Positions 1,783 through 34,397 of a DNA stretch of 42,691 bases are shown in pieces. A program made the translations under genes and the position numbers. Origin of the DNA: Candidatus Terraquivivens ruidianensis (GTDB lineage Archaea > Thermoproteota > Nitrososphaeria_A > Caldarchaeales > Wolframiiraptoraceae); the NCBI GenBank assembly GCA_023267885.1, contig JALNLB010000001.1:72779-115469 (forward strand), read 5' to 3'. Numbering within the stretch: the first letter of the stretch is position 1; every line of letters starts with the position of its first letter. The notes beneath the pieces were generated by a model. The model worked only from the letters and a program-made list of their open reading frames with translations, did no database searches and had not been told where the DNA came from.

Positions 1783-2670
1783 ATGGATATGATAATAGAT
1801 GTACATGCTCATATAGGAGAGTTTCCTAAGCAGTGGAGTCAGGAGTGGTTTGATTCATATGCACATCTTGTAGGAGATCCCCTGAGATCGGTTTTACGAT
1901 ATTTCCCTATCGAGGATAAATTTTTGGCAGACATGGATGAGGCGGGTGTTAATGTATCAGTAGTTATGGGGTTTGTTCACTATTCAACATCAACCCTTGT
2001 ACCCGATGAACATGTTTACAATTTTGTTAAGAGCAATCCAGATAGACTCATAGGCTTTTCATGCGTGCAACCCATAGACAGTAGAAATGAGTTCAACGCG
2101 AGGGGTCTCTTAGAATTTGAGACGGCAGTTACTAAATATGGGTTCAGGGGTCTGAAGTTCCTACCGGTTTACAACTTCTTCTTTCCCAACGACAGAAGGG
2201 CATATCCATTCTACGAAAAAGCCTTAGAACTGAATGTTCCTGTGATGTTTCACTCGGCTGCAGTCGGAAGCACCGCCGCATGTATGAAGTACGGTCATCC
2301 TATGTATTTAGAAGACGTTGTGATGGATTTTCCTAAGCTGAAGATGTGCGTATCCCATATGGCATTCCCGTGGACAGAAGAGGCGCTTTTGTTAGTGCGG
2401 AAGGCACCGAATATGTACATGGATGTGAGTGCCATGGTCAGACCAACTATTCTTACATGGAATCTTGTTAAAGCAAAGGAGTACGGTGTGATACACAAGT
2501 TGATGTTCGGCAGTGATTATCCTCTTTTTGGCCCTCGGAAGAACTTGGTAGAAATTATCAGAGACAAAGTCAATCAGATTGCGGAGAGGACAGGATGGCC
2601 GACCCTAACCGATGAGGAAATTGAAGGAATATTGTGGAAAAACGCGTTAAAGTTCTTAGAGTTGAAATAA
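1783..2670 (+). CDS. Amidohydrolase family 2 (TIM-barrel metallo-hydrolase)
   Basis: IIDVHAH, GFRGLKF, PVMFHS, SHMAFPW, MFGSDYP motifs. Confidence 0.85.
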   Translation: MDMIIDVHAHIGEFPKQWSQEWFDSYAHLVGDPLRSVLRYFPIEDKFLADMDEAGVNVSVVMGFVHYSTSTLVPDEHVYNFVKSNPDRLIGFSCVQPIDSRNEFNARGLLEFETAVTKYGFRGLKFLPVYNFFFPNDRRAYPFYEKALELNVPVMFHSAAVGSTAACMKYGHPMYLEDVVMDFPKLKMCVSHMAFPWTEEALLLVRKAPNMYMDVSAMVRPTILTWNLVKAKEYGVIHKLMFGSDYPLFGPRKNLVEIIRDKVNQIAERTGWPTLTDEEIEGILWKNALKFLELK

Positions 2671-31093: not shown

Positions 31094-33316
31094 TTACTCT
31101 TGCTCCACGAAACTGGATATTGTAGGTATCTCTGGTGGAAGGCCCTTCCTCTTCCTTATCTCCGCTATAACTCTGTCCCTTATCGAGGCTGGAACGGGTT
31201 TCCAAGAAGAAAACTCAGTCGCCCAGAAGGCCTTACCCATCGTCACACTCCTCATAACCTCACTCAGGTCAAAGGTCTCAGCCGCCGGAATCTCGCCTTG
31301 GATTATCGTTATGTACTCAGATTGCTTAACATCTAAAACCTTTCCTCTCTTTGAACTCATGACGCTCGTCACAGCACCCATGAATTCTGGCGATACTTTT
31401 GCCTCCAGCTTCAGGATGGGTTCTAGGAGTACTGGGTCGGCGCTTAGTATGCTAGCGTAGAGGCTTCTCCACGTCGCTGGCGCTATTTGGGCATAACCTC
31501 TATGCACGGGGTCTTCGTGTAATTCTACGTTAACCAGAACTGCCTTTACCCCCCTCATGGCCTCACCAGCGAGTGGTCCTTCTGAAACTACCCTTTGGAA
31601 GCCGCCTATTATCATCATCTTGGATTCGTGAAGGTACTGGGCTCCTTTTGTCATGTCGACGAGTATGTTACCCTTCGGGTCGATGCACCAAACGTTCCTA
31701 GCCTCCTCGGCATCCCATCCATGGTCTCGCAGTATCTTCGCCACCTGCTTCCTGTCCATCTCGTCGTATAGCTCACCTGACCTTATCAAGTCGATTATCT
31801 CGGGTTCCAGCGGCTCTGCCTTGATGTATATCCTGTTATGTCTATTCGGCGACTTACCCTCGAAGACTCTTCCCACCTTCTGGATCGCTTCCCTGTAGAG
31901 TATTATCGGTTTGCTTGGGACGACCTCCAGACCTGCCTTTCCTATCCATGTGAGAGCAATCTCAAGATGCAACGTTCCCATGCCGCTTATCAAATACTCA
32001 CCGGTCTCGGGCCTTACCGTCGTGACCAGCGTTGGGTCTTCTATGCTCAGCTTGTTTAAGAAGTCGACAAGCTTCGGTAAATCCTTACTATGTTTCGGTT
32101 CTATCGATATCGTCACAACTGGTTCCGACACATACTTTAACGTTTCGAATGGAATCGTTTCTACAGTTGCAAGAGTGTCACCTGCTCTCGCGTTTTCTAT
32201 ACCTAAGAGTGCGGGTATATTACCAGCGGGCAGGCTACCGACTATCTCCCTTGAAGGCCCCATATAGACTGCAACCTGTTGAACCCTCTCCGTGATGTTC
32301 CTTCCAACCAGTAACAGCATGTTGCCCTCGTTTATATTACCGCTGAACAACCTTCCTGTTGCCACAACACCAGCTTGTGGGTCAACCTTCACGTCTGTCA
32401 CGGCCATCACCGTAGGACCGTTCTCATCGCACTCCATCATGGCCCTACCGACCTCGCTGTCTATCGGCCCCTTCCATATCTTTGGTATTCTATACTTTTG
32501 GGCTACATGTGGAGGCGGATGGTGGTTTATTATCATCTCAAGAATTGCTTCATGTAATGGTGTATTTTCCCTGAGCCACTCCACGTCATCCCTTGCAAAC
32601 GCGTTGATTACGTCAACGAACTTTATGCCCTTCTTCTGGGCTTGTCGTAAAGTGAATCCCCATCTATCCTTCGCACTGCCTATCGCCACACTGCCAGCAG
32701 CCATGCTAACCTTCCATTTGTCCCTAAACTCCGGCTCGGCGTACATCTCTATCAATCTGTTAACATCCATGATTATCCTACCTAGCGTCTCCTGAATCTT
32801 TTCAGGAGTTAGCTTCAGCTCCTTAACCAGCCTGTCGATTTTGTTTATGTATAGAACTGGCTTAACTCTCTCTCCTACAGCTTGACGTATAACAGTCTCC
32901 GTCTGCGTCATGACGCCCTCGACGGCGTCTACTACAACGACTGCACCGTCTATTGCTCTCAAAGCCCTTGTGACCCTTCCAGAGAAGTCGACGTGTCCAG
33001 GGGTATCTATGAGATTTATTATGTAAGGCTTCGAGTCCATCTCATAGTAGAGGCTGATGTTTGCTGCCTTGATTGTCATCTGACGTTGCTGCTCTTCTTC
33101 GAGATAGTCTAAAGCTAACGCCTTTCCGGCCAAAGATGGTGAGAGCAGCCCTGCTGCCGCTAGAAGGCTGTCCGTCGTGGTTGTCTTTCCGTGGTCTACT
33201 TACCCCCTAAGGATTGTAGCGTCTCCTTAGGTATGGGCTATGATACCAACGTTTCTTATACTATCCTTATGTTTGAGGATGTCTACGACTTCACTGATCT
33301 TCTTCACTTTAGGCAT
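31094..33316 (-). CDS. fusA: Translation elongation factor EF-2 in two exons (33316-33233 and 33199-31094; 729 aa after splicing)
   Basis: Exon 1 MPKVKKISEVVDILKHKDSIRNVGIIAH; exon 2 VDHGKTTTTDSLLAAAG..., DTPGHVDF, NKID, HEDPVHRG. The ORF-track call 31094-33133 lacks the G1 motif. Confidence 0.93.
33200..33232 (-). other. 33-nt bulge-helix-bulge (BHB) intron in EF-2 mRNA
   Basis: Insert ACCTAAGGAGACGCTACAATCCTTAGGGGGTAA lies between His and Val codons of AHVDHGKT. It contains 2 in-frame TAA, an 8-bp stem CCUAAGGA/UCCUUAGG, a 4-bp central helix GCCC/GGGU and 3-nt bulges AU^A and AA^G. Confidence 0.88.
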
Positions 33317-33498
33317 TTTCCTTCAACACCTGATGGGTCATTTAAAATGCTGCCATATATAGTTGCCATTAGCAGGATTTCTGCCGTCAAAAACCATATT
33401 TAGGTTTACATGAGCTTTTAAGTACAAGCAAAGTTTCTGATATAAAGCTTACTTGTGATTTAGCCAGAGGGTGTTGATGGAGGTTATAAGCTTCGTTG

Positions 33499-33804
33499 TT
33501 AGGCACTCTTTCCGAGCTTTGCCATCACGTCGTTGTATATCTCCGTCCTTGTCCTCCCTTCAGTCGGTACGCCTAGCTTTTTAGCCATGTCCATCAGCAT
33601 GTCGATGTCTTTCTTCAACTCTTGAACGTCTACGGTCGAGGTTGCCTGCTCCTTAATCTCCTCGGCTTCCTTCACAGCCTTCTGAAACTCTTTCTTGGCC
33701 CTACCCAACGACTTCGCCAGCTCGGGTATCTTGCTCGGACCCCATATAAGGAATATCACCACGATTATTATGATGATTATCCACTCAATGCCAACTATCG
33801 CCAT
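33499..33804 (-). CDS. tatA: Twin-arginine translocase TatA/E subunit
   Basis: GIEWIIIIII...WGPSKIPELAKSLGRAKKEF. Confidence 0.9.
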   Translation of the reverse strand: MAIVGIEWIIIIIIVVIFLIWGPSKIPELAKSLGRAKKEFQKAVKEAEEIKEQATSTVDVQELKKDIDMLMDMAKKLGVPTEGRTRTEIYNDVMAKLGKSA

Positions 33805-33929
33805 GGATGCTCCGTCATTAAATGCCCAAAACTGGTTAAAAAGGGTTACGTACCCATCAAATTTAATGCTATCCCTTTATTGCATCTCCATATGTTTTTA
33901 TATGGGCAAAGGATTTGGATGCTCGGGAG

Positions 33930-34397
33930 ATGTCGGGAGAATTCAGATACGTTGTCAGAATACTGGGCACGGATATAGACGGCTCGCTTAAGCTACCATA
34001 TGCTCTCGCCAAAGTGAAGGGCATAGGAACAAACCTCAGCTACATCATCGCAAGAGTCCTAGGGCTTGACCCTGAGACGAGGATAGGTTATCTAACGGAG
34101 CAGCAACTTCAGCGCATAGAGGCTGTTGTGAAGAACCCCTTAGAGCACGGCATACCAGACTGGATGATAAACAGGAACAGTCCAGCTTTAGTAGAAAAAA
34201 AGCATCTATTGGGTGCAGACTTAGATTTTGCAATTAAGGAGGACATAAGGAGGGAGATTACGATAAAATCCTGGAGGGGCGTCAGACATTCCTTAGGTCT
34301 CAAGGTGAGAGGACAAAGAACTAGAACCACGGGTAGGACAGGCACTGCAGTCGGAGTATCGAAGAAAGAGGTCAAAGCTGCTACTAAAAAGGAATAG
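33930..34397 (+). CDS. rps13: 30S ribosomal protein S13 (uS13)
   Basis: FRYVVRILGTDIDG, KGIG, SWRGVRHSLGLKVRGQRTRTTGR; ATG at 33930 preferred. Confidence 0.96.
   Translation: MSGEFRYVVRILGTDIDGSLKLPYALAKVKGIGTNLSYIIARVLGLDPETRIGYLTEQQLQRIEAVVKNPLEHGIPDWMINRNSPALVEKKHLLGADLDFAIKEDIRREITIKSWRGVRHSLGLKVRGQRTRTTGRTGTAVGVSKKEVKAATKKE

Follow-up and report, generated by a model that had tools for sequence, protein, structure and literature searches.

The known case of a bulge-helix-bulge (BHB) intron within an archaeal coding sequence is that of the cbf5 pre-mRNA of Crenarchaeota, reportedly described by Watanabe in 2002 and Yoshinari in 2006. As of 2020 it was named as 'only one example' of such an intron in mRNA, alongside a BHB element in a 5′ untranslated region (5′UTR) of Haloferax (PMC7714728), and the pre-mRNA passage of a 2025 paper cites just three cbf5 papers (PMC12397907). 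The same paper has a bulge A13-A14-A15 cut at the A14/A15 bond, in keeping with the cut between the second and third bulge nucleotides described in PMC2738675 (Yokobori 2009). Here we analyse a stretch of 42,691 nt (the window) from the hot-spring archaeon Candidatus Terraquivivens ruidianensis, of the order Caldarchaeales (Aigarchaeota). It spans positions 72779-115469 of contig 23, in a genome assembly of 1.27 Mb and 50 contigs with a completeness of 95.2%. We argue, with a probability of about 0.9, that the pre-mRNA of this organism's single gene for elongation factor 2 (EF-2) carries a bona fide archaeal BHB intron. The original prediction, made from the letters of the window, had placed a 33-nt intron at 33200-33232 and had called BHB introns rare in mRNA with cbf5 as the well-characterised case, a statement with which the portions of PMC7714728 and PMC12397907 available to us agree.

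Direct reading of the minus strand finds the insert at 33232..33200 as quoted, where ATC ATA GCC CAT is followed by 33 nt and then by GTA GAC CAC GGA AAG ACA, and re-translation confirms that its removal restores a 729-aa EF-2 with its stop codon at 31094. Translated from the ATG at 33316, the unprocessed gene reads MPKV...NVGIIAH T-stop-GDATILRG-stop VDHGKTTT..., that is, 28 codons, 11 insert codons with two in-frame stops, and 701 codons. The interruption falls between IIAH and VDHGKTT, inside the G1/P-loop motif AHVDHGKT that forms the GTP-binding loop. The parts of the gene are as follows.

33233..33316, minus strand: EF-2 exon 1, ATG at 33316, 28 codons MPKVKKISEVVDILKHKDSIRNVGIIAH, the last codon being the His of the G1 motif.
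33200..33232, minus strand: putative BHB intron, 33 nt, phase 0, with two in-frame stops.
31094..33199, minus strand: EF-2 exon 2, 701 codons from GTA GAC CAC GGA AAG ACA (VDHGKT...), stop codon at 31094-31096.

Exon 2, the translation of which begins VDHGKTTTTDSLL and continues uninterrupted to the stop, scores 824 bits against the NCBIfam model TIGR00490 for aEF-2 (cut-off 738) over profile positions 28-720 of 720. The 27 positions missing from this match are exactly the part encoded by exon 1, which can be aligned to the N-termini of EF-2 genes that have no intron. The longest start-to-stop open reading frame (ORF) at the locus opens with a TTG at 33133, encodes 679 aa and does not include the P-loop, and gene callers would plausibly truncate EF-2 in this manner. 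A second intact EF-2 was sought by a six-frame search of the genome and none was found, the sole other match being weak and to an EF-1alpha-like GTPase. The insert is likewise single copy, since blastn-short returns its self match at an E value of 4e-13 and next-best matches of 11-13 nt at E values of at least 1.3.

The RNA spanning the junction can be folded into an hBHBh′ structure in which two 3-nt bulges on opposite strands flank a 4-bp helix that is itself bordered by further helices, the arrangement expected of the class in its relaxed form.

33235..33238, minus strand: 5′ strand GCCC of the central 4-bp helix H, exonic, pairing with 33202-33205.
33202..33205, minus strand: 3′ strand GGGU of helix H, intronic, paired in both fold and alignment.
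33232..33234, minus strand: 5′ bulge AUA, predicted cut between 33233 and 33232.
33199..33201, minus strand: 3′ bulge AAG, predicted cut between 33200 and 33199.
33206..33231, minus strand: intron hairpin h′, stem 33231-33224 with 33213-33206, 10-nt loop 33223-33214.
33189..33251, minus strand: whole hBHBh′ fold, including a weak exon-exon helix (RNAalifold consensus columns 8-13 with 70-74).

The intron begins at nucleotide three of the 5′ bulge, continues through the 8-bp hairpin (strands CCUAAGGA at 33231-33224 and UCCUUAGG at 33213-33206, joined by the 10-nt loop) and the GGGU strand of helix H, and ends two nucleotides into the 3′ bulge. Outside it, the exon-exon helix h consists of 1-2 bp next to the bulge (UA/UA, adjoining H) and 5 bp further out (CGU-GG/CC-ACG). 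Every element of this fold that had been proposed for the locus, namely helix GCCC/GGGU, bulges AUA and AAG, the 8-bp stem, the 10-nt loop and the UA/UA and UGGU/ACCA pairs, is present in its place. When 71 nt are folded without constraints, the minimum free energy (MFE) structure contains the hairpin stem, the central helix and the bulge on the 5′ side, at -22.7 kcal/mol (z = -3.39), and none of 200 shuffled sequences is as stable.

Applied in silico, the published cleavage rule places the cuts at AU|A and AA|G; exactly 33 nt are then excised, and the universally conserved motif AH-VDHGKT is restored along with the 729-aa aEF-2. The cut sites given by the rule thus coincide precisely with the boundaries that the protein needs, as had been claimed (rule as described in PMC12397907 and PMC2738675), and cuts made in the same way restore the frame in all ten intron-bearing genomes considered below. 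A loose hBHBh′ pattern matches 7806 of the approximately 3.5e8 position-by-length combinations of the genome; this amounts to about 2e-5 per fixed position and length, and both the position and the length of the insert are fixed independently by the protein alignment.

Comparison with relatives, which the original prediction had put forward as a check, was carried out on 61 Caldarchaeales genomes including the one studied. EF-2 was found in 59 and its N-terminal region was readable in 58, of which ten are interrupted exactly between AH and VDHGK (site 1) and 48 are contiguous. The interrupted genes come from six of the seven genomes of the genus and from all four of a second family, f3, with inserts of 33, 30, 31, 31, 31 and 31 nt in the former and 33, 36, 33 and 33 nt in the latter. 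In the four genus genomes with a 31-nt insert, of the six that carry the intron, exons 1 and 2 lie in different frames, and different exon frames in four species exclude any reading in which the insert is translated. Across the six genus species, the 84 nt of exon 1 contain 16 variable sites; third codon positions account for 12 of these, and the 28 encoded residues differ at only 4 positions, a pattern that marks exon 1 as what appears to be a functioning coding exon under purifying selection. The protein encoded by exon 2 is 93-96% identical to that of other species of the genus and is free of internal stops.

Genomes of the genus share identical stems but differ in the sequence and length of the loop; in f3 the hairpin is unrelated in sequence to that of the genus and still pairs. 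When the ten sequences are aligned, the central helix is 100% paired in all of them, with a CG to GC double change in three (f3), and each of the eight pairs of h′ shows changes on both sides, with 95% of cells paired. Double changes therefore occur in nine pairs, eight in the hairpin and one in the central helix, so that the stem covariation sought at this locus is present. Overall, 89.4% of cells are paired versus 73.4% in shuffled alignments, none of 500 of which reaches the observed value, and pairing drops to 29-51% when the partners are slid by one to three columns. RNAalifold, given no structure, predicts the same two helices together with the outer exon helix, and 10 of its 17 predicted pairs are compensatory. 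It is therefore structure rather than sequence that is conserved, albeit across few independent lineages.

A scan of metagenome contigs extends this picture. It returned 80 loci, 76 of them evaluable, several contigs duplicating the genomes; nine of the 76 have an insert at site 1, seven at a second site described below and 60 at neither. Two site-1 variants, of 35 nt and 30 nt, are new, and the latter (locus L228) has a fourth, unrelated A/U-rich stem that is again paired. All five contigs with an exon and stem sequence of the Terraquivivens type carry the intron. Taken together, non-triplet insert lengths, compensatory stems, freely varying loops and an exon 1 under selection argue for removal at the RNA level.

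We propose the following course of events. The EF-2 transcript would fold into helix, 3-nt bulge, 4-bp helix, 3-nt bulge and hairpin; the splicing endonuclease EndA would cleave each bulge between its second and third nucleotides, at AU|A and AA|G; and the ligase RtcB would join the exons and probably circularise the 33-nt intron, giving a mature mRNA that reads ...IIAH-VDHGKTT... and encodes the 729-aa EF-2. Translation of unspliced RNA would end at the second intron codon and so give no more than a 29-residue peptide. From the sequence evidence we infer that this cutting and ligation takes place in the cell, and the essential EF-2 most likely depends on it.

The host encodes both a splicing endonuclease and an RtcB-type ligase. 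Two ORFs belong to the EndA family, one of 185 aa (112.6 bits to TIGR00324) that aligns to the catalytic half of long EndA models, and one of 183 aa (65 bits) whose alignment covers the structural half, with a weak match to beta-subunit models as well. RtcB is represented by a 485-aa protein (576 bits). The EndA paralogues are encoded on contigs 14 and 45, and RtcB on contig 18. Two paralogues of about 185 aa point to the broad-specificity (alpha-beta)2 architecture, and the enzyme is most likely a heterotetramer of that kind. Such heterotetrameric EndA is linked to relaxed substrates and to cbf5 splicing in the pertinent passages of PMC5829648, PMC2724299 and PMC2738675. ARAGORN predicts 46 tRNAs in the genome, with introns in 19, mostly of 8-44 nt, two calls (449 and 1113 nt) being doubtful.

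Several observations weigh against this interpretation. The exon-exon helix is weak, with only 1-2 bp adjoining the 3′ bulge and its helices 1 and 2 paired at 72.5% and 80%, so that the motif is a relaxed one that depends on a broad-specificity EndA, and the EndA subunit type is itself deduced from the two paralogues. The covariation comes from few lineages: the ten sequences represent about three, and about four stem types when the contigs are counted. In what follows G000 is the genome studied, other G numbers are related genomes and L numbers are extracted loci. Two of the ten sequences, G001 and G039, have an unconstrained MFE fold other than the BHB. No spliced form of the Terraquivivens type was seen among the 80 metagenome contigs, although these are probably DNA assemblies and the lack of a spliced form then says little either way. 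Finally, one genome of the genus, G006, has no EF-2 intron, and the 5′ part of its gene looks foreign. Over the 5′ flank, the exon-1 region and some 300 nt beyond the junction (locus L004), its identity is 79-85% to a genome of another family and 70-75% to G000, while the remainder of its EF-2 is 84-92% identical to the gene in the window; it carries the 20-nt cbf5 intron typical of the genus. Such a mosaic is either recombinant or a chimeric assembly, and G006 would accordingly have either lost the intron through replacement of the 5′ end of the gene or be represented here by a chimeric contig.

Other ways of accounting for the insert fit less well. The phage T4 gene 60 is read by ribosomes that hop over a bypass element, and the family of such elements is defined by matching take-off and landing codons. 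The insert might similarly be kept in the mRNA and be bypassed, or be recoded by stop read-through with frameshifting, and the stop shortly past the putative take-off point and the stable hairpin in the gap do give it a superficial likeness to the gene 60 element. However, the take-off codon would be CAU, GGGUAA precedes the resuming GUA and there is no CAU or CAC at which to land; the gap is 30, 31, 33, 35 or 36 nt long with differing content; conservation tracks base pairing and the 3-4-3 bulge geometry rather than codons; and the same geometry accounts for the cbf5 intron and for the second EF-2 site, which makes bypass very improbable. A decaying pseudogene, or a truncated EF-2 made from an internal start with the insertion being neutral or disabling, would explain the two in-frame stops and the 679-aa ORF from TTG 33133. 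This would leave a 95%-complete genome with a sole EF-2 in which the whole P-loop is missing, and it is hard to reconcile with an exon 2 that is stop-free and 93-96% identical in the genus, with purifying selection on exon 1 and with an insert kept structurally intact in six species and five contigs; we regard it as extremely unlikely.

That the source is a metagenome-assembled genome of 50 contigs and the insert a palindromic hairpin could suggest an assembly or sequencing artefact, or else a small repeated mobile element of the palindromic miniature inverted-repeat transposable element (MITE) kind. The insert, however, recurs with distinct loop sequences in genomes and metagenome contigs that were assembled independently, is single copy in the genome by blastn-short and has no visible flanking direct repeat, and the probability of an artefact or repeat is close to negligible. 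A subtler alternative accepts the BHB and its cleavage by EndA but sees in them mainly a regulatory or degradative switch, with only part of the transcripts being ligated. Both EF-2 sites lie very near the 5′ end of the coding sequence (codons 20 and 28), and the BHB element in the Haloferax 5′UTR affects HVO_1309 expression according to the relevant part of PMC7714728. EF-2 is nevertheless essential and single copy, and efficient ligation would for that reason have to be the main outcome, so that a predominant switch is very improbable. Two further classes of element were considered and set aside: a self-splicing group I or II intron needs a ribozyme core of hundreds of nucleotides, against inserts of 30-36 nt and a window Rfam scan that gave only a tRNA, and an intein needs a stop-free, in-frame insert of more than 130 aa with splicing motifs, against 11 codons with two stops here and non-triplet lengths in relatives.

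An internal positive control for the BHB interpretation is provided by the cbf5 gene of the same genome. It contains a 20-nt BHB intron on contig 7 at 2270-2289, minus strand (approximately 1794-1813 of L144), removal of which restores GHGGTL-DPAVSGVLP, and which lies between letters one and two of the catalytic Asp codon, the published crenarchaeal position as given in PMC2738675. By the same rule, 14 of 30 Caldarchaeales genomes (L248-L276) have a cbf5 intron, comprising all seven of the genus, four with 14-nt mini-introns and three others; cbf5 is contiguous in 11 of the 30 (genera g2-g5), G010, G036, G039, G042 and G045 gave no result, and the 'contiguous' call for G035 looks wrong. In Table 1 of PMC2738675 the cbf5 intron is recorded for Desulfurococcales and Sulfolobales alone, the entries for Cenarchaeum, Nitrosopumilus and Korarchaeum being 0.

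Genome-wide scans for further BHB introns were too noisy in their loose forms, which gave 7806 raw, 906 ORF-joining, 203 long-stem and 522 hairpin matches. A stricter filter left 23 matches, of which EF-2 alone has a protein-like junction, and missed the real cbf5 intron; the EF-2 intron ranks first among strict ORF-restoring BHB hairpins of the genome. A revised filter (intron of at most 70 nt, simple hairpin, stem of at least 5 bp, at least 25 codons on each side) left seven, among which EF-2 and cbf5 are real. The match at 25791-25816 of contig 13 just joins two neighbouring ABC-transporter genes, and four others (an overlapping pair at a single site of contig 45, and single matches on contigs 24 and 16) were dismissed solely on junction peptides that are not protein-like. 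A count of only two mRNA introns in the genome is accordingly valid solely under these filters. One strict BHB-like fold of 42 nt lies outside the window, at 35405-35446 of contig 23 (506-547 of L277, minus strand), and has an 11-bp stem that starts CCUAAGG like the EF-2 intron. It is in frame and stop-free inside a 445-aa dehydrogenase-like ORF, which we take to be related to UDP-glucose dehydrogenase, and was judged to be a chance fold.

EF-2 is also interrupted at a second site. Site 2 splits the Asn codon of IR-N-IGIIAH (codon 20, versus codon 28 for site 1) and is found 27 nt upstream of the latter; its inserts are 26-37 nt long and mostly not multiples of three. It is interrupted in 9 of 78 readable genome-contig loci, all titled Bathyarchaeia/Bathyarchaeota or 'archaeon', and in 15 of 20 loci picked from a 201-genome phylum sample for 68-73% identity; the latter set is selected and overlaps the 78 loci, and the counts are therefore not frequencies. 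An intron at site 2 is common in Bathyarchaeia-type genomes. The loci concerned are the following.

Site-2 loci tested, first set: L113, L114, L116, L120, L121, L122, L127, L139, L140 and L108.
Site-2 loci from the phylum sample: L147-L161, corresponding to G104, G160, G139, G121, G118, G069, G083, G125, G174, G181, G076, G111, G097, G093 and G090.
Site-2 loci in metagenome contigs: L233, L236, L237, L238, L240, L244 and L245.

In a strict scan, cutting by the rule gives back ...IRNIGIIAHVDHGK in 8 of the 10 site-2 loci of one set and in 11 of the 20 of another. Five loci that failed the scan (L121, G121, G083, G125 and G093) have the same signature; in L121 one stem mismatch can be seen by eye, and a relaxed stem is our guess for the other four. 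L108 did not pass either and contains both introns: it belongs, with L056, to G045, a member of the Nitrososphaeria whose EF-2 carries a 33-nt intron at site 1 and a 30-nt one at site 2. The inserts of G045 lie approximately 60-130 nt upstream of the DHGK codons, and its site-2 boundaries were worked out by hand. With this second site in EF-2 and the cbf5 intron in the same genome, the phenomenon appears to be wider than the original prediction saw.

The EF-2 intron can thus be placed among the systems already described. It resembles the cbf5 intron in that a cut between the second and third bulge nucleotides agrees with the reading frame, in its variable internal part, in interrupting the codons of a catalytic motif and in its link to a hetero-oligomeric EndA, all as set out for cbf5 in PMC2738675. 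The host genes differ, EF-2 being a translational GTPase interrupted in phase 0 and cbf5 a pseudouridine synthase interrupted in phase 1, as do the hosts, with Caldarchaeales (site 1) and Bathyarchaeia-type archaea (site 2) on one side and Crenarchaeota on the other. The two introns have no sequence relation, and the EF-2 intron does not belong to the cbf5 intron lineage, given that it lies in another gene. Splicing of cbf5 has been shown experimentally, whereas that of EF-2 is argued from sequence. The EF-2 intron would then be an element of the same type as that of cbf5, in a host gene that is new and more central, and would form part of a broader pattern. With the BHB introns of tRNA and rRNA it shares the 3-4-3 geometry, the predicted use of EndA and RtcB and a similar size (tRNA introns of 8-44 nt in this genome). 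It differs from them in its mRNA host, in a weak exon-exon helix drawn from coding sequence and in that the reading frame also constrains the cuts.

Beyond coding sequences and stable RNAs, the splicing of HAC1 and XBP1 in eukaryotes is independent of the spliceosome, regulated by stress and carried out by Ire1 together with RtcB or tRNA ligase. The EF-2 case would share with it the splicing of an mRNA by protein enzymes, cuts defined by stem-loops, joining of the tRNA-ligase type and a change of frame; the nuclease is Ire1 rather than EndA, and there is no evolutionary link. This unconventional mRNA splicing is also mentioned in the accessible part of PMC13149111. The HVO_1309 transcript of Haloferax volcanii is likewise an mRNA substrate of the splicing endonuclease, but its BHB lies in an untranslated leader, in a euryarchaeon with a homodimeric enzyme, whereas the EF-2 intron lies in coding sequence (HVO_1309 as described in the relevant passages of PMC7714728). 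Searches of the openly licensed full-text literature and bioRxiv turned up no EF-2 gene with a reported BHB intron, and in the text at hand of a 2018 study of aEF-2 evolution the word 'intron' appears solely in the reference list (PMC6143161).

An A/T-rich block lies upstream of exon 1.

33341..33367, minus strand: A/T-rich block upstream of the exon-1 ATG, …CAACTATATAT…ATTTTAAA…, putative promoter region.

Its core GCAACTATATAT is identical in all six intron-bearing genomes of the genus, its ATTTTAAA part is conserved with small differences between them, and the stretch preceding the exon-1 ATG is also conserved in the genus; the block is likely to be the promoter region. The neighbouring ORF at 33499-33804 (minus strand) encodes 101 aa in which a charged helix comes after a hydrophobic N-terminus, which we take, by eye from the translation, to be TatA-like, and the 160-aa ORF at 33915-34397 (plus strand) resembles ribosomal protein uS13 in its translation. 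The only match of the Rfam scan of the window is one tRNA; a tRNA-Arg without an intron lies at 1605-1682.

It is tempting to ask whether EF-2 BHB introns form a recurrent class that may be mobile and may be regulatory. The use of two sites, separated by 27 nt within the best-conserved 5′ codons, in Caldarchaeales and many Bathyarchaeia-type genomes, the presence of both in G045 and the location of the cbf5 intron in catalytic-site codons as well speak for this idea, which we nevertheless consider doubtful. If it were true, tRNA-type introns would have spread by something akin to homing or reverse splicing, entering coding sites that are highly conserved; alternatively, synthesis of the translocase EF-2 would be tied to EndA and RtcB activity, coupling tRNA maturation capacity to EF-2 supply. 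More immediately, EF-2 serves as a marker in phylogenetics and in completeness estimates, as noted in the excerpt of PMC6143161, and interrupted EF-2 genes that are called as truncated or shifted affect both uses. The intron would also offer a natural mRNA substrate for studying EndA specificity, and the timing of splicing relative to coupled transcription and translation. The factor affected is an essential, single-copy component of translation that is interrupted inside its GTP-binding loop, and the EF-2 case, with two sites in two classes of Thermoproteota, would show that archaeal mRNA splicing by protein enzymes extends beyond one gene.

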